64,000 nucleotides of DNA from a virus (Duplodnaviria; Heunggongvirae; Uroviricota; Caudoviricetes), in IMG/VR virus record IMGVR_UViG_2667527592_000002; one strand, written 5' to 3'. Positions 1,890-43,248 of the stretch are shown here, piece by piece. Positions within the stretch are counted from its first letter, which is position 1, and each line of letters starts with the position of its first letter. The position numbers and the translations under genes are program-made. The notes beneath the pieces were generated by a model. It saw nothing but the letters and a program-made list of their open reading frames with translations. It ran no database searches and was not told the DNA's origin.

Positions 1890-2282
1890 ATGGAACAAAT
1901 CAGCAGCGCAGAAATTGCGGATATCATGATCAGGGCTGACTGCTATCTGACAGTCACTGAAATTACCACTCTCGCCAAAGAAAAATACCCTCATCTCCAT
2001 GTTTCACGAGTAAGTGTAACTAACATCATTCGTCATTTTGTTCGTTCAAGCAGGGCAATCTGTGAGCTGGATGATCGTGTGTATCCACGAAAATACTGGC
2101 TACATGGTCTGAACGGATATCAGTTCAAGGTGCGCGGGCGCACGCCTGAATACGGTAGCTTACTGGTTAAAAACTGTAGCAGGAAATCAGTCGAACAGGC
2201 GCGAAAAGAGCAACGAGAGCTGGTGGACATGGCGAATAAGCTGTGGAATGCCGCCGTTAAAAAGCGTGGTGTTGCTTTATGA
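1890..2282 (+). CDS. hypothetical protein (130 aa)
   Basis: ORF track; stop overlaps pacA-like start (ATGA). Confidence 0.5.
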   Translation: MEQISSAEIADIMIRADCYLTVTEITTLAKEKYPHLHVSRVSVTNIIRHFVRSSRAICELDDRVYPRKYWLHGLNGYQFKVRGRTPEYGSLLVKNCSRKSVEQARKEQRELVDMANKLWNAAVKKRGVAL

Positions 2283-3643
2283 GTCTGGTTAATTGGGAGG
2301 AGCACCGCGCCCGCTTTATAGCGTTGCGTGAAGAAAAAGGGATCACTGTAAAGGAATACTGTGAGGAGCATGGCCTTAGCTTCAATACAGCCAGAAAGCA
2401 TCTCAATATGAAAAAAAATGAGGTGCGGTCGCAGGTAAAGACAACAAAAAAAAGCACCAAATCACCTGAAAAAAAACGGGCGGGAAGAGCAACAAAAAAG
2501 CTGGAAGAGGGTGCAGAAAAAACAAAATTTACAGAAATTGACAATTCGCAGGGTGCAGGTTCTTTCCGAAGTATGCCAAGAAAGAAAACTTCGGATCATG
2601 AAAGTAATTCCAATAATAACAATGAGATAAAAGAATCTGTCAGGAGATCATTGCGCGAAAAAATGGCGAAAATGATCCCCGAAGAAGATAAAAGCGCCCC
2701 AAAAATTGAGGGATCTTCAGCAATGATCCCTGGCGGTGCTGTGCAACGTGCCACATTGCCCACTACGAATGTGGCTCGCGACATGATGAAGAACGGCGCA
2801 GAAGAACACCTGCGGTTAGCAATTCAAATGGCGCAAGAGCGCGCACTTCAGTATCAAAGCATTGTTGATCAGGAGGCCGAACGTCTACAGGCGGAAATAG
2901 ACGCCTTGGGCGATAAAGAGCCAGAAGGAATGCACCCTGGGCAGCGCCTTCTCGGTCTAATCAGTGACGCGGCCTACTACATGAATGATTTTATCAGTAG
3001 GTTGGCAGCTATATATCAGTCCGAACAAAAGCTGCGACAGGGGGATGAAAAGCTTCGTCAGAGCGCTCGCCAGCAAGCATTCAAAGAGGCTGAGGCCAGA
3101 GAAAAACTCGAATTAGCACGCCTACAGGCCGAACAGCGTGGCAAAGAGATTGAATATCGCATTGGCGCTGACGCACGCGCTGCCAGAGTTATCGCCGCCG
3201 CTATACGTATGCGTGAGCGCGAGGAACTGGATGATATCGGTGTTGCTGAATACATCGAGCGCCAGGGGGTCAGCGTCCCGGCTATCCTCGCGGCGCGCGC
3301 GGCGAAAGCTATCACTCTTCTCGAACCACCTGTTTCTGACGTCAATGATGTTGATGATGAACAGCTGGACAAAGAGGCAAGGGAGTTTGCAACGCTTCAG
3401 GCTAACCATCCGCAATGGCTGGCAGAGCGCCGGGCGGATGTGGCAACCATTGTTGAAGAATTGGGGTGCGGAGATTACGACCGCAATGGCGAGCGTAAAG
3501 CTGGAGAATTCGAGGCCAGCGACGAAGAGCTGGATATTGACCCTTCGGCAACGGCTGAAATTTACGGTGATTATGATGCATCTGATGCAGGGTATGACGC
3601 CGGAGATGATGATATCGCGATAGAACCGCCGGAGGATGATTAA
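2279..3643 (+). CDS. putative terminase small subunit (PacA-like), acidic C-terminus
   Basis: Immediately upstream of and overlapping the large terminase; N-terminal HTH-like segment; internal GATC cluster; assignment by position, not by recognised sequence. Confidence 0.45.
   Translation: MSLVNWEEHRARFIALREEKGITVKEYCEEHGLSFNTARKHLNMKKNEVRSQVKTTKKSTKSPEKKRAGRATKKLEEGAEKTKFTEIDNSQGAGSFRSMPRKKTSDHESNSNNNNEIKESVRRSLREKMAKMIPEEDKSAPKIEGSSAMIPGGAVQRATLPTTNVARDMMKNGAEEHLRLAIQMAQERALQYQSIVDQEAERLQAEIDALGDKEPEGMHPGQRLLGLISDAAYYMNDFISRLAAIYQSEQKLRQGDEKLRQSARQQAFKEAEAREKLELARLQAEQRGKEIEYRIGADARAARVIAAAIRMREREELDDIGVAEYIERQGVSVPAILAARAAKAITLLEPPVSDVNDVDDEQLDKEAREFATLQANHPQWLAERRADVATIVEELGCGDYDRNGERKAGEFEASDEELDIDPSATAEIYGDYDASDAGYDAGDDDIAIEPPEDD
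2594..2728. other. GATC cluster (5 sites in 135 bp), candidate pac-type packaging site
   Basis: GATC at 2594, 2646, 2674, 2712, 2725, mostly as TGATC[CT] hexamers; P1 pac lies within pacA and is built from Dam-methylated TGATC[AG] hexamers. Confidence 0.35.
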
Positions 3644-5151
3644 TGGCTGGCGGGCGCAAGATTAAATGCGTCACCAGCGATCCACGCTGGCGCGATATGG
3701 TAATCAAATACCGCTACAACTTTACCCAGGCTGTTGTCGATATTTTTGGGATGTTCCCCTCCCACCAGCAGCAGCAGATCATTCAGTCAGTGCAGGAAAC
3801 GGGGAGTAGGACGACCGTCACGTCCGGACACGGAACGGGGAAGTCGTCCCTTACCGCGATGTTGCTGTTGATTTTTATGATCCTGTTCCCCGATGCCCGT
3901 GTCATCATTGTTGCTAACAAGATAGGCCAGGTAAAAACAGGCGTATTCAAATACGTTAAACAGTATTGGGCGAATGCAGTTAAGCGTCATGGGTGGTTGC
4001 AGACCTATTTTGTCCTCTCTGACACCATGTTTTATGAGCGCTCCCGTAAGGGGATTTGGGAAGTTCTCTGCAAAGGTTATCGACTCGGCAACGAAGAAGC
4101 GCTGGCGGGGGAACACGCGGCACATTTGCTTCTAATTCTGGACGAAGCATCTGGTATATCTGATAAGGCGATCGGCGTAATGACCGGTGCTCTTACTGAA
4201 GAAGATAACCGGATGTTGATGCTATCCCAGCCAACAAGGCCAAGTGGTTATTTCTACGATTCGCACCATTCTCAAGCAAAAACCCCAGACAACCCGAAAG
4301 GGATCTGGACAGCAATTGTTCTTAACTCGGAAGAATCACCGTTCGTCACACCACAATTCATCAAGCAGAAGCTTCTGGAATATGGCGGGCGCGATTCTAT
4401 TGAGTACATGGTCAAGGTGCTTGGTCAGTTCCCACGAGAAATTAACGGCTATTTGCTTGGTCGTGATGAATGCGATCGCGCTGCTCGCCGCAAGGTGTTG
4501 TTGGAGAAAAACTGGGGATGGGTGGCAACGGCTGACGTTGGTAATGGGCGAGATAAGTCGGTCCTCAACATCTGCAAAGTATCTGGTCACAGGGATAAGC
4601 GGCGCGTTGTTAACTTTAAGGTAATGGAGATGCCTGGCACTATGGACCCATTGGCCTTTGCTGACTTCATATATAACGAATGTACGCCGGAAAAATACCC
4701 GAATATAACAATCGCGGTTGATGCTGATGGTTTTGGTTCTGATACGTGTGCGCAGTTGGTGCGTCGTGGTGCGAACCCGGTACGTATTCGGTGGGGAAAA
4801 CCCATGTTTGCGAACAAAGACAGGGAGCGATTTGTTAATCAGCGTGCCTACGCAAATATTATGGCGCGTGATGCCATAAAGTCAGGGCGTATGCGGATAG
4901 ACAGTGACCCTAAAACGGCAGAGCAAGCGTCAAAAATCCCCTTTTTACTGAATGAAGAAGGGAAAATGGCGATGATGCGCAAAGAGCACATGCGGCAAAA
5001 GCTAAACATCAAATCGCCTGACCGATGGGATACCTACTGCTTCACTATGCTGGTGGACTATGTGCCTGCTAATGAAGATATTGGTGCCGAAATGGCAACT
5101 TTCCGAGATCAGGTTCTGGCGGATATCGAAATGCCGGATCTGGATATATAA
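3643..5151 (+). CDS. terminase large subunit (PacB-like)
   Basis: 502 aa; Walker A SGHGTGKS, Walker B LLLILDEAS, C-terminal acidic nuclease-like region; start overlaps pacA stop. Confidence 0.7.
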   Translation: MAGGRKIKCVTSDPRWRDMVIKYRYNFTQAVVDIFGMFPSHQQQQIIQSVQETGSRTTVTSGHGTGKSSLTAMLLLIFMILFPDARVIIVANKIGQVKTGVFKYVKQYWANAVKRHGWLQTYFVLSDTMFYERSRKGIWEVLCKGYRLGNEEALAGEHAAHLLLILDEASGISDKAIGVMTGALTEEDNRMLMLSQPTRPSGYFYDSHHSQAKTPDNPKGIWTAIVLNSEESPFVTPQFIKQKLLEYGGRDSIEYMVKVLGQFPREINGYLLGRDECDRAARRKVLLEKNWGWVATADVGNGRDKSVLNICKVSGHRDKRRVVNFKVMEMPGTMDPLAFADFIYNECTPEKYPNITIAVDADGFGSDTCAQLVRRGANPVRIRWGKPMFANKDRERFVNQRAYANIMARDAIKSGRMRIDSDPKTAEQASKIPFLLNEEGKMAMMRKEHMRQKLNIKSPDRWDTYCFTMLVDYVPANEDIGAEMATFRDQVLADIEMPDLDI

Positions 5152-18696: not shown

Positions 18697-19692
18697 TCAG
18701 TTATTGAACGTGATCACTCCGCGCTCGATGGCGAAGTCGAAAAGCTGGTTAGCTGCTACGTAAAGGCGTATGCCATGTGCTTTTTCCCATGCCCGGACAT
18801 CGTTTTCTGCGCTTCTGGCGCAGTCATCGCAAAGAGGAACAGCCCAGCGGTCGTGTTCGTTTAACGAGCGGGCGCGGTACATGAATGGGTGATTAACCTT
18901 GCCGCCGCAGCCTACACACGGGCGAGACACCACAAACCGGAGATAAGCCGGGCTTTTTCCGAGTAAGGTTTTTGGACGGCGCATATATAGGAGGCCAGAA
19001 TCTTCATCGACGGACAGATTGACGATCTGCTCTGCGGAAATATCCACCAGCTCGCGGGTACTATGCTCCCAGGTAATATCCGACTCTTTCAGAGTGCCGG
19101 TAGGGATTTCAGTTTTTGGCTGACAAAATGCAATGCGACCAGCTTCATCAGGCAGTTCGTCTTTAAGATTCCGGCGAATGGCCCAAAAGGTGAGTTCAAC
19201 CATGCTCAGATCGCGATCTGGCGGAAGTTTTAACTCGCTGGCAGCCCAGTTCATAATCCAGTTGGCGCGATTCAGTGACAGTTGGTCTTCCAGCTTGCCG
19301 TATCCCTTCATCATGTATTCCGCATCATGCTTCCAGCACAGGCGAACGGCAGAACCGTTATAGAAATGGGTGGTTAACTGGTGGCTGCAATCGCGCTTAT
19401 CATGCGCCTGGCAATCGTGAATGTTGGTGCTAACCCAGTGAACGAGAGAATCCTCACCACCTAACGCGTTAAATACGCGCTCACTTTGAAAAAAGGGTGC
19501 CAGTGACTGGTTGGTAACCAGTGAATAATTCAGGTCAACGACACCATCAGGGGTGTTTTCAGCCTGTTCACGCGGCAATGGGGATATAAGAAAACGACGT
19601 CCTGCGCCGATGTAATTGCTGGTGGGCTTATCTACAGGAAAGACAGCCACACCAGTTTCATTTACGACATATGGGGTGATTATTGCACTCAT
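18697..19692 (-). CDS. hypothetical protein with C-terminal Cys-rich zinc-ribbon-like motif (331 aa)
   Basis: ORF track; CVGCGG ... CDDCA. Confidence 0.5.
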   Translation of the reverse strand: MSAIITPYVVNETGVAVFPVDKPTSNYIGAGRRFLISPLPREQAENTPDGVVDLNYSLVTNQSLAPFFQSERVFNALGGEDSLVHWVSTNIHDCQAHDKRDCSHQLTTHFYNGSAVRLCWKHDAEYMMKGYGKLEDQLSLNRANWIMNWAASELKLPPDRDLSMVELTFWAIRRNLKDELPDEAGRIAFCQPKTEIPTGTLKESDITWEHSTRELVDISAEQIVNLSVDEDSGLLYMRRPKTLLGKSPAYLRFVVSRPCVGCGGKVNHPFMYRARSLNEHDRWAVPLCDDCARSAENDVRAWEKAHGIRLYVAANQLFDFAIERGVITFNN

Positions 19693-26963: not shown

Positions 26964-27022
26964 ATGCTGCATCCCCGGCGACTCCGGGGATTTAACTGCC
27001 AAATAATCGGATTATCCGCACG

Positions 27023-27334
27023 ATGAAAAAAATAGATTTCACTTATTCTGCCGCCACAATCCAGCGACGTTTCAGTCTCATAAGGGAAGTGGAACTATCA
27101 AAAAACTTGTATCAAATTCTACTGGATGAAGAGTTTTCACTGATGGTTATAGCAGAAAAATTAGCTATGCCGAACGACCGGCACAAGGTCATAGCCAGCC
27201 TCGATCTGGTGACAAACAGATACTGGGAGAAAGAGGAACTACATGAGGCGGGAGTAATTCGTGACCTGATGGAGAATTCCGTTCCCCGCCGCTATCGTGC
27301 AGGGAACGGCATCTCCGTGGTTAAAGGTGTTTAA
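27023..27334 (+). CDS. hypothetical protein (103 aa)
   Basis: ORF track. Confidence 0.4.
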   Translation: MKKIDFTYSAATIQRRFSLIREVELSKNLYQILLDEEFSLMVIAEKLAMPNDRHKVIASLDLVTNRYWEKEELHEAGVIRDLMENSVPRRYRAGNGISVVKGV

Positions 27335-28367: not shown

Positions 28368-28582
28368 GTAAACAAAATGAAGTTTTATGTTATAAAAACA
28401 ATTAACTACATCAACATGATTTAGGCCAAATTTCGGTCAAAAAATAAAATCCACAAAAAGTGGTTGACACTATTTTGGAAATCACAAACTACACATAATC
28501 CATCGCGCTAACGGCTCCCGTTGAAGGTTCTTTTGACGATTAACTTTCAGCCGAAGCGCGGTAGGGAGTCATAACGCCAAAG

Positions 28583-28609
28583 CAGGCCGCCATGTGCGGC
28601 CTTTTTTTG
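28583..28609 (+). terminator. rho-independent terminator-like hairpin directly upstream of a gene
   Basis: GGCCGC-CATGT-GCGGCC followed by TTTTTTT; start codon of next gene 27 nt downstream. Confidence 0.55.
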
Positions 28610-28635: not shown

Positions 28636-29289
28636 ATGGAAAAGATCGCAATATTCAGCCTGACCACCAGCAAGCCTCAAATGCTCACTGCAATACTGAA
28701 AGACGGTGCTCTCATTATTAACGAAGTAAAACCCCTTCCCGCGTCAGCATTGGAGCAAAAGCAAAAAATTCCTCCAGCTATAGCAGCCCTGCGGAAAAGC
28801 AAATTTAAGGTACTGGTAGACGAAATTACGCCAACGATCTCCGCTGGCACCGGAGCAAGCCAGGTGACTCTCAAGACCCGTCATGCCGATGGCAGAGCAG
28901 CAATCATCGTCGGGATGGAAAGATACAGAGAGTTAAAACTCCAGAAGCTATTATCCCTGCCGCAAAATAACAAAGGTGCTTTCGAAATCCCCGACTCTAT
29001 CGTTGATACCGAATACAACGGTAACGGAGAAGAAGTCTACAGGGTGAACTGGCAGGATATCAGGCCGGAGCATATTCTGATGATCCTGTGTTGCTACGCG
29101 ACCGTATACCAAAACGTTGCCAGTGCAGATTACGTAGAGCAGATGACCGGGACAGTCGAGAAAGAGCAAAAAACAAGCATACTCGCTTCGTTCCTTTCCA
29201 TTATTGGGCATGAAAAAGTTAAAGCAGGCACCTCCCAGCCAAAGTCACTGGCTGGGAAAGAAGTTGATGAAGATACCGTGATACTTTGA
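28636..29289 (+). CDS. hypothetical protein (217 aa)
   Basis: ATG 28636 after GAAGGAAGG RBS; the track's GTG 28594 start lies inside the terminator hairpin. Confidence 0.55.
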   Translation: MEKIAIFSLTTSKPQMLTAILKDGALIINEVKPLPASALEQKQKIPPAIAALRKSKFKVLVDEITPTISAGTGASQVTLKTRHADGRAAIIVGMERYRELKLQKLLSLPQNNKGAFEIPDSIVDTEYNGNGEEVYRVNWQDIRPEHILMILCCYATVYQNVASADYVEQMTGTVEKEQKTSILASFLSIIGHEKVKAGTSQPKSLAGKEVDEDTVIL

Positions 29290-29424
29290 TCACATTAGTA
29301 GCTTTGTTAACTCCCTCAATACCAGGTAGAAGAGTAACAAAAATATTGACGCGAGTATTTGAGTGGTCAATGAAGCGTTCATAAACAGATCAATTAGCAT
29401 TAATAATTCGAAGATAACATCCAT
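29290..29424 (-). CDS. small hydrophobic protein (44 aa), type-I-toxin-like
   Basis: Hand-translated MDVIFELLMLIDLFMNASLTTQILASIFLLLFYLVLRELTKLLM; GGAG 8 nt upstream; abuts stop of convergent gene. Confidence 0.35.
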   Translation of the reverse strand: MDVIFELLMLIDLFMNASLTTQILASIFLLLFYLVLRELTKLLM

Positions 29425-29617
29425 GTCATTCACTCCGTTTAATTTTTAATCTAATGCCAGCAAAGGAAGCTGGCCCCCGCATAAAGATTAATGAAAGTCA
29501 CTTGTCACCAGTGAGGGGATTTATGAACCACATCCCCCTGAACTGGTGGCCTGTCTGTTTCTCGCATTTCACACCCTGCATACAGTTTCCCCCAGGTTAT
29601 GACTGAGAGGCTTTGTT

Positions 29618-29947
29618 ATGGGCTATAGCAGACTCGACGATAGGTACATTGAAGACGATATTTTTCGTGCGCTGTTTCACCAGGAAATGATTAAGCGGGT
29701 ATCGGAGTATCACTCTGATAATTTCCAGTACACGATAAAGATTGATGAAGTATATCGTTCAGACCTTGCAGCCTACAGGGCGTATGGCAATGCAGATTTG
29801 CGCTGGGTATTCCGGGTGCTGGTGGGCCATGAGTCAGAAATGGAAGAAATGCCCGCCGGGACCACGTTAACTCTTCCTGATGTGGCATGGCTGAGGAACA
29901 AGATCCGTGATTACGCGAGCGCGGAACCGGAGATAGAAAATGCCTGA
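29618..29947 (+). CDS. hypothetical protein (109 aa)
   Basis: ORF track. Confidence 0.45.
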   Translation: MGYSRLDDRYIEDDIFRALFHQEMIKRVSEYHSDNFQYTIKIDEVYRSDLAAYRAYGNADLRWVFRVLVGHESEMEEMPAGTTLTLPDVAWLRNKIRDYASAEPEIENA

Positions 29948-31133
29948 TTTCCTGAAAAACCAGGACGGGCGCTATATCACTGACGGCCTGTCCTCTAAGG
30001 ACTTCACGCGTTTATTCGACCTTATCAGGAAAGAACAAACCCGTAAGCGCCGACAAGCTCACCGGACGCTGACGCCAGGCAGACTTAGGAACAAATCCGC
30101 CGAAGATATTCTCAAGTTAGGGAAGAAAAAAGGCGGCACGTTCTTCACGCGAGACGACCTGAAAGGTTTCGAAAAGCTACGGAGTAAAACGCGCGAAAAA
30201 TATGACAGCAAGACGGCTGGCATCACATACGCCCAGCTGGTGGCATCCAGCCAGGCAATCGATATTAAGCGTGCAAATAACGCCGTGGATGACGGATCTG
30301 GTATCAAAAGAGCTACACCCGTATCTCTTCGCCACAATGTGATTAATATCCGCGTAGAAGCATCGGATATATCCGTCCACCAGCACCATATCGTCCGGAT
30401 ACGCTTTGAAGAATGGGATCAGATGGTTGATGACATCGCAGAAGACGATAAATCAGCTCTCAAAATAACTAAATCACTGTGCGCCGGGCGAGTGTCTTTC
30501 GATTGTGACTGTGGTCGCCATCAATACTGGTATCGCTACATCGCCACTGCGGGTAACTTTGCCCTGGCACCGCCAAAAGAATACGCCTATCCAAAAGTTC
30601 GCAACCCTAAGCTGCAAGGTGTCGCCTGTAAACACGTGATTCACGCAATGACGCGGTTACAGTCCGCCAGTTGGCAAATGAGTATTGCTCGTGCGCTACA
30701 AAAGGCTGCAACGCAAATTGCATTTGGTGACGATCGCCGCCGTACAACCAAACACTTCTCAAAAGAAGACGAGAAGGAGTTTAATCGCAATCGTAGCAGT
30801 AAAACGAACGTTGAAGCCGCCAAACGCGAATGGAGGCTCTATCAGAAGCGCCAGGCAGCTTTAAGTACAAAACTGGCAAAGGACAACGGCAAGATCGACA
30901 AACTACGTGACCAATTGACCAAGGCCAGAAAGTTGTCAGACGCACAGAAAAAACGGGCGGCAGCAAAAGAAGCGGCCTTGCAACGTGAGAAACAGAAAAA
31001 CAAGGAGCTTCAGCAACGCCTTGCCGATCAGTTCGCACTGAAGAAGCAGGCGTTCATTGATGCGCTTGTCATGGCTGGAACACCACCAGCACAAGCTGAA
31101 AAAATGTTCATGGAGTATGTAAAAAAAGCATAA
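29940..31133 (+). CDS. hypothetical protein with SWIM-type zinc-finger-like motif and basic coiled-coil C-terminus
   Basis: FDCDCGRHQ ... ACKHVIHA (CxCx(n)CxH pattern); 397 aa. Confidence 0.5.
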   Translation: MPDFLKNQDGRYITDGLSSKDFTRLFDLIRKEQTRKRRQAHRTLTPGRLRNKSAEDILKLGKKKGGTFFTRDDLKGFEKLRSKTREKYDSKTAGITYAQLVASSQAIDIKRANNAVDDGSGIKRATPVSLRHNVINIRVEASDISVHQHHIVRIRFEEWDQMVDDIAEDDKSALKITKSLCAGRVSFDCDCGRHQYWYRYIATAGNFALAPPKEYAYPKVRNPKLQGVACKHVIHAMTRLQSASWQMSIARALQKAATQIAFGDDRRRTTKHFSKEDEKEFNRNRSSKTNVEAAKREWRLYQKRQAALSTKLAKDNGKIDKLRDQLTKARKLSDAQKKRAAAKEAALQREKQKNKELQQRLADQFALKKQAFIDALVMAGTPPAQAEKMFMEYVKKA

Positions 31134-43162: not shown

Positions 43163-43248
43163 ACAAAAAATATTCCGAAATTTAACTCTCCGTTTGAATG
43201 ACGAAATAACAAAGTGATGACAATAGGAGGATAACCAGGAGGTGAAGA

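Follow-up and report, generated by a model that had tools for sequence, protein, structure and literature searches.

In phage P1, a 9-bp inverted repeat present in all 11 late promoters serves as the site for the late activator Lpa (PMC10695390). In the annotated P1 reference record these promoters are laid out as a 9-bp '-22 region' followed by 4 nucleotides and a -10 hexamer: LPmat reads AAGTGACTT-cagt-CAGAAT and LP26 reads AAATGACTA-gcgg-TAGAAT, the box of LP26 being also used by the divergent promoter LPpmgL. Here we analyse a small gene that appears to carry a promoter of this type in a relative of P1, the 64,000-nucleotide virus record IMGVR_UViG_2667527592_000002 of IMG/VR (hereafter the window). 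The region shares 98.6% identity with Escherichia phage D6 and 99.9% with an E. coli O111:H8 plasmid, and these values identify the window as a D6-like, P1-related phage-plasmid of E. coli. The gene is an open reading frame (ORF) of 44 codons plus stop on the minus strand (29290..29424), convergent with mat, which encodes the maturation control protein (28636..29289, plus strand). It is the same gene as orf77 of phage D6, the proteins being 100% identical, and we use this name throughout.

Conservation of the orf77 reading frame

By itself, the presence of such an ORF says little. The coding strand of orf77 is 38% T, and a T-rich strand by itself yields hydrophobic codons, so that a non-functional ORF arising by chance on the T-rich strand of an AT-rich spacer could be hydrophobic as a by-product of composition. 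When the spacer was shuffled, 564 of 2000 sequences (28%) held an ORF of at least 44 codons starting with ATG. No call was made by the PGAP pipeline, and some copies of the ORF are broken, as would be expected of a sequence without function. The existence of the ORF is not beyond chance; the pattern of its conservation, however, is.

We compared 39 loci carrying the ORF after mat, with 19 distinct DNA alleles. The ORF is intact in 38 of the 39 and has exactly 44 codons in each of these. Between the window-type allele and a Shigella-type allele there are 11 synonymous and 3 non-synonymous differences, giving a ratio of non-synonymous to synonymous rates (dN/dS) of 0.06. A second class of alleles (MNIFNKLIDLLNKFISASLTQQVSTSVFLLLFYLVLRELTKLLM and relatives), linked to a toxin-antitoxin (TA) cassette, shares only about 52% of DNA positions over codons 1-28, and yet preserves the start position, the 44-codon length and the helix pattern. 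Two alleles within this second class differ by 14 synonymous and 7 non-synonymous changes (dN/dS 0.09), and dN/dS between the two classes is 0.2-0.37. In the remaining frames the ratio is about 1 or higher, the mirror frame, which shares third positions, being the one exception. Among window-type alleles, variable sites fall 7, 5 and 21 times on codon positions 1, 2 and 3, respectively (binomial P = 3.5e-4), and the plus-strand frames across orf77 are interrupted by stop codons. Frame conservation, the synonymous excess and the stops on the plus strand together show that orf77 is a real gene under purifying selection. A chance ORF would not be expected to show a third-position excess in this frame only, nor to keep frame and length at around 50% DNA identity, and we regard this explanation as extremely improbable.

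The initial annotation had described a 44-residue minus-strand ORF with a properly spaced GGAG, its stop next to that of a convergent gene. All of this is found in the sequence, including the peptide as quoted (MDVIFELLMLIDLFMNASLTTQILASIFLLLFYLVLRELTKLLM). The ATG lies at 29424-29422 and the stop at 29292-29290 (plus-strand TCA), directly abutting the TGA of mat at 29287-29289. A Shine-Dalgarno (SD) sequence, GGAG (29433..29436, minus strand; CTCC on the plus strand), stands 8 nucleotides upstream of the ATG and is retained by most alleles, one lineage (L032) having it weakened to AGTG. This ATG is the likely start, because an in-frame GTG further upstream, which would give 47 residues, has no SD and is lost at two loci (L025, L041). 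TA-linked alleles could encode an N-terminally extended form of 63 residues; window-type alleles have a stop codon there, and the 44-residue core was therefore taken as the gene. We also dropped an 18-codon ORF ending 1 nucleotide before the orf77 ATG, since its own ATG precedes the predicted transcription start and its position is not conserved in the other allele class.

The ORF had further been called unannotated, which is true of the plasmids in RefSeq annotated by PGAP, but not of phage D6. Our tblastn search located orf77 in 101 PLSDB plasmids (80 from Escherichia, 15 from Salmonella and 6 from Shigella), and none of these 101 records has a feature under the match. On the other hand, orf77 is entered in two D6 records, and PHROG 38362 matches it end to end; the legends read 'hypothetical protein' or 'unknown function'. 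By sequence, the gene is thus real but already catalogued as a hypothetical protein.

A P1-type late promoter sequence upstream of orf77

Upstream of orf77, conservation is concentrated in one short block. Between the allele classes, the 21 nucleotides 29485-29505 are 95-100% identical, against 49-52% for the 5' untranslated region (UTR) and 31-39% to the right of the block. This is where the putative orf77 promoter lies (29485..29509, minus strand). It reads GGTGAC-AAGTGACTT-TCAT-TAATCT, that is, a GGTGAC flank (29509-29504), the 9-bp inverted repeat AAGTGACTT (29503-29495), a TCAT spacer and the -10 hexamer TAATCT (29490-29485), with transcription predicted to start at about 29478. The box is identical to that of P1 LPmat. 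In the complete P1 genome, we recovered the late-promoter layout before mat, prt, lyz, lydA, R, gene 23, pacA and pmgC, with the consensus (A/G)AC-AAGTNACTT-N4-TAnnnT, and the orf77 block fits this consensus at every position. The TA-linked variant of the block, GTCAACAAGTGACTTTCATTAATCT, shows 18 nucleotides of identity with the P1-type promoter upstream of P1 gene 23.

Several further features fit an activator site of this kind. The -10 varies among alleles only at its fourth position (TAATCT, TAACCT or TAAACT), as expected for a working -10, which supports a functional promoter. Direct reading revealed no -35 at 16-18 nucleotides before it, and we found no sigma-70 promoter for orf77 upstream on the minus strand. 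On the plus strand, the palindrome reads AAGTCACTT-GTCA-CCAGTG, without a credible -10. The sole conserved block upstream of orf77 has, at the sequence level, every feature of a P1-type Lpa late promoter. A P1-type C1 operator was also looked for near orf77; there is none in the window at up to 3 mismatches.

A few nucleotides past the predicted start, the minus strand carries a GC-rich hairpin, GCCAGC-N7-GCTGGC (29456..29474). All leaders retain it: the core, CCAGC/GCUGG, is invariant in 13 distinct ones, two of which show a compensatory change of the closing pair from G-C to A-U. In the second allele class the stem is extended, though the surrounding UTR is only about 50% identical. The hairpin is probably the 5'-terminal stem-loop of the orf77 mRNA and may have a stabilising role. 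We considered whether this hairpin could be a general feature of late leaders, and rejected the idea as it was not seen in other D6-type or P1-type leaders. The orf77 leader as a whole folds no better than shuffled sequences (z = -1.2). Taken together, orf77, its own putative promoter and its leader hairpin form a compact AT-rich module between mat and gene 26.

A putative late signal of the D6-like element

Is the P1-type box the general late signal of this element? Apparently not. The box AAGTNACTT occurs once in the window, at the orf77 promoter, relaxed scans show no enrichment, and no late operon of D6 carries it upstream. The sequences preceding D6 lydA, R, prt, pmgB, ddrB and orf16 yielded instead a D6-type motif, AAATCACA-N-ACT-N3-(T/C)AnnnT, whose box differs from that of P1 and stands 2 nucleotides farther from the -10. 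With no more than one mismatch, this motif occurs at five sites in the window (28479, 32708, 45978, 54610 and 61986), all on the plus strand; another plus-strand site, at 43204, has two mismatches. In L044 it is seen at 19215, 25241, 27747, 31531, 38135 and 45511, and it recurs ahead of late operons in D6-like elements. The orf77 promoter would then be the only P1-type late promoter of the element.

We found a single Lpa homologue in the element (window 1890-2279), about 31% identical to P1 Lpa, and no second one. The use of a separate D6-type motif fits this low identity of the resident activator.

A predicted antisense transcript from mat

The D6-type site at 28479..28499 (plus strand; AAATCACAAACT-ACA-CATAAT) is a perfect match to the motif and stands 157 nucleotides upstream of the mat ATG. 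It is the likely source of a transcript antisense to orf77. A strict terminator scan found no intrinsic terminator between the mat stop and orf77. The first strong plus-strand hairpin lies past both orf77 and its promoter (29504..29563, the hairpin proper at 29504-29550; -23.3 kcal/mol, z = -2.3). It is followed by a U-rich tail and is a candidate for the mat 3' end, although the strict scan did not call it; in variants carrying the TA cassette, a cleaner hairpin with CUUUCU stands at the equivalent place after the cassette. With no terminator after mat and a hairpin beyond the module, a transcript started at 28479 would run antisense across the whole of orf77, as the initial annotation had anticipated for readthrough from the convergent gene.

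The mat leader itself holds an intrinsic-terminator-like hairpin and T run between the late motif and the mat start (28584-28609). A like layout of motif, hairpin with T5, and gene is found before gene 26 in the most distant relative (L037, 3176-3198). This arrangement hints at antitermination or attenuation of late transcripts.

Predicted product

AlphaFold2, run on the family alignment, models two helices, at residues 2-16 and 19-43, with a mean pLDDT of 95. Only the segment of residues 18-36 exceeds the threshold commonly set for transmembrane helices (KD19 = 2.07). The peptide had been described as membrane-helix-like throughout, which holds for this segment but not for the N-terminal helix, which is amphipathic, with muH values of 0.37 in the window type, where it bears three acidic residues, and 0.70 in the second class. 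In the window-type peptide, basic residues occur solely in the C-terminal tail, RELTKLLM, and the positive-inside rule suggests that this end is cytoplasmic. The product is most likely an inner-membrane peptide made of an amphipathic helix and one transmembrane helix. The broader proposal of a gene for a small membrane-type peptide is thus borne out by frame conservation, the modelled helices and hydropathy.

Family, distribution and loss

Searches against Pfam, NCBIfam and PADLOC returned no match to orf77 at E <= 10. The 8 matches from an exhaustive profile search over 1.84 billion representatives all belonged to orf77's own family. Two word-index searches brought up nothing beyond this family and its degraded copies, namely frameshifts, a stop-loss and a 29-residue nonsense form. 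Among phage records, the gene is present in D6 only. One family member is named 'membrane protein' in nr. In these collections, orf77 is an orphan family confined to D6-like elements.

Losses of the gene are varied. One lineage has a nonsense codon at position 30; elsewhere, a TnpB element of the IS200/IS605 family sits inside the ORF after about codon 23, or IS2 is inserted immediately upstream of the ATG. The two different insertions were seen in L030 (around 3290-4620) and L045 (CP043746.1; around 3570-4970). These independent disruptions, and the absence of orf77 from two relatives (L037 and L031), indicate that the gene is accessory and dispensable for plasmid carriage.

In the window, the spacer between mat and gene 26 spans 328 nucleotides (29290-29617) and has orf77 as its only cargo. 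Its content differs between relatives (L006, L007, L020, L029, L031, L035 and L037), and by this comparison the spacer is a cargo hot spot. In L037, whose Mat is 77% identical, it is reduced to 60 nucleotides holding only a late-promoter-like motif and a hairpin. In L031, a different TA cassette takes the place, and about 20 of 119 PLSDB plasmids have orf77 together with a RelE/ParE-HigA cassette. The GC content of orf77 is 34%, against 47% for the window. Other genes on the minus strand nearby are of accessory type: higBA, a simB-like gene, and one whose product begins with a signal sequence resembling that of a lipoprotein. P1 has no counterpart by synteny, as its mat is followed by lxc and res/mod with no equivalent ORF. 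A scan of genome contigs with Mat led to one locus.

Downstream, on the plus strand, come gene 26 (baseplate; 29618-29947) and gene 25 (tail; 29940-31133). A weaker D6-type element, ATTTCACACCCT-GCA-TACAGT (29566..29586, plus strand, 3 mismatches), stands 52 nucleotides upstream of gene 26; it keeps this distance in all spacer variants and varies little. Two other ORFs of the spacer were not retained. D6 orf76 (29498-29581, minus strand; 27 residues, hypothetical) overlaps both the hairpin of the plus strand and the D6-type element before gene 26; it is probably no gene, since its start is not conserved, its differences between lineages are mostly non-synonymous and it is replaced in the variants with a TA cassette. 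A 50-residue plus-strand ORF (29454-29606) likewise has a non-conserved start and mostly non-synonymous differences. Finally, the abutting stop codons of mat and orf77 (29287-29292) spell TGATCA, which contains the Dam methylation site GATC.

Possible roles of orf77

Our favoured explanation, to which we give about an even chance of being right, is that a late activator turns on orf77, an accessory gene for a small membrane protein, against the opposing effect of the convergent mat transcript, and that the product has a membrane-directed role in lytic growth. The gene would be silent in the resting plasmid and turned on by the resident Lpa or by a P1-type Lpa. The 3' part of the late mat transcript, antisense to both the gene and its promoter, would limit expression by transcriptional interference or by forming an RNA duplex. 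The peptide would then act on the cytoplasmic membrane during lytic growth, for instance as a holin-like, lysis-timing or exclusion factor, and not as a plasmid-addiction toxin. orf77 does not classify as a holin gene: it is flanked by mat and baseplate gene 26, lydA and lydB of D6 are elsewhere, and no family matches it.

A number of points weigh against this explanation. The element's own late operons appear to use the AAATCACA-N-ACT box, and none the P1-type box. With only about 31% identity to P1 Lpa, the resident activator may or may not be able to fire the orf77 promoter. The D6-type motif is itself putative, having been derived here from upstream regions. As to the antisense transcript, the terminator-like hairpin of the mat leader (28584-28602, followed by T7) could limit it, and the hairpin at 29504-29550 departs from the canonical form of a terminator. 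One lineage (L032) has a weak SD, and the proposed membrane activity is based solely on the predicted shape of the peptide.

How far can the same observations be accommodated otherwise? If orf77 were a 'moron' expressed in lysogeny, it would be read by the host RNA polymerase with some additional factor in the plasmid state, would serve superinfection exclusion or the modulation of a membrane protein, and would be shut off on induction by convergent late transcription. Its strand, opposite to all late-type promoters of the window, its low GC content, its accessory neighbours on the minus strand, its variable presence among relatives and the 'membrane protein' label in nr are all consistent with this. 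We nevertheless consider it unlikely, as there is no sigma-70 promoter upstream on the minus strand, and the exact coincidence of the sole conserved upstream block with the elements of a P1-type late promoter is left unexplained; nor does a P1-type C1 operator occur anywhere in the window. The initial annotation leaned towards a type I toxin with its antisense RNA. In that case the peptide would be a toxin that damages the membrane, held in check at the level of translation or mRNA stability by a complementary RNA, either the mat 3' UTR or a short antisense RNA started inside orf77, and the pair would serve plasmid addiction or abortive infection. The size, single transmembrane helix and basic C-terminal tail fit, the gene is plasmid-borne, the spacer of relatives holds type II TA cassettes, and the mat transcription unit is predicted to cover orf77 completely in antisense. 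Codons 3-6 can also pair with the SD and start codon in a local stem, and the independent inactivations by nonsense codon, frameshifts, IS2 and IS200/IS605 give an indirect hint of toxicity. A promoter-like site on the plus strand (TTCATA-18-AATAAT, 29378-29407) could start an RNA covering the SD; however, it matches at 9 of 12 positions, which occurs at chance frequency (2 found, 2.9 expected), and it lies in the coding sequence, where its conservation is inseparable from coding constraint. A short antisense RNA would also have no terminator, the hairpin at 29456-29474 being followed by a U tract on neither strand. The one clear source of antisense RNA is of late type and, judging from P1, should be inactive in the plasmid state, in which an antitoxin would be needed; the toxin promoter would lack a -35 and looks activator-dependent, and the leader shows no more folding than shuffled sequence. 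Besides the absence of a toxin family among the matches, Rfam yields no known antitoxin RNA, only snoRNA and miRNA noise at E > 1. Peptide type and antisense geometry aside, then, the proposal finds no toxin family, Rfam antitoxin or dedicated antisense RNA gene at this locus. A type I toxin is the less likely reading; we see it as quite unlikely, and the locus is probably no classical pair of small toxin and antisense RNA.

A last possibility is that orf77 answers to a rival phage's late activator and not to that of its own element. Once a P1-type phage reached the late stage of its cycle inside a D6-like lysogen, P1 Lpa would induce orf77; the peptide would damage the membrane, and the rival would be aborted or excluded. 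During lytic growth of the element itself, the antisense transcript from mat would prevent expression of the peptide. P1-type lpa is present in 650 of 5426 complete E. coli genomes (12%) and the D6-like region in 100 (1.8%). In P1, lydC encodes a holin paralog, lethal when cloned, for which only a 'putative early promoter' has been given (PMC9025707); a P1 late promoter is reported to be lacking there. We observed in the P1 genome (L046, OP279344.1) one D6-type box, AAATCACAAAGT-ACA-TACCGT (~27010-27030, minus strand), 59 nucleotides upstream of lydC. It is the only such box in that genome with at most one mismatch, about 0.09 being expected by our estimate. A D6-type box before lydC mirrors the P1-type box before orf77, which is suggestive, though these are motif matches alone. 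We hold this scenario to be improbable, a little more so than a type I toxin.

Whichever explanation applies, annotation pipelines routinely overlook small membrane proteins, and orf77, called in none of the plasmid records that carry it, is an example with clear evolutionary proof of coding and a defined regulatory anatomy, in phage-plasmids widespread in E. coli, Salmonella and Shigella. The most interesting result is an unexpected one, namely a P1-type late promoter in an element whose own late genes seem to use another signal. If cross-talk among related phage-plasmids lies behind this, we would have a simple case in which a mobile element senses the late programme of another. If the resident activator uses both signals, orf77 would simply be a minor late accessory gene.

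Comparison with known systems

The type I toxins Hok/Gef, Ldr, TisB, Ibs, ShoB, ZorO and DinQ, from enterobacterial plasmids and chromosomes, resemble orf77 in their size (below 60 residues), single transmembrane helix, plasmid-borne location and overlap by a convergent transcript. orf77 differs from them in having no family match and no dedicated antisense small RNA with promoter and terminator; its putative promoter is of activator type, without a -35, and its antisense partner would be the 3' region of a late mRNA.

In regulatory layout, the closest parallel is with P1 pmgL and the LP26/LPpmgL pair. Like orf77, pmgL is small and non-essential, neighbours gene 26 and is transcribed away from it, with an Lpa box, 4 nucleotides and a -10. 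The products have no sequence similarity, PmgL being an 81-residue, Cys-rich protein without a membrane helix. The use of the box also differs: in P1, one box serves both directions, whereas the orf77 box has a credible -10 only on the minus-strand side, and gene 26 has its separate D6-type element.

With respect to the product, orf77 may be compared with P1 LydC and LydD, small membrane proteins that tune lysis, neither of which P1 needs on its own to form plaques (Bednarek et al. 2022, PMC9025707). These have 84-93 residues and two transmembrane helices, whereas the orf77 peptide has 44 residues and a single predicted helix of this kind, shares no similarity with them and is encoded outside the lysis cassette.

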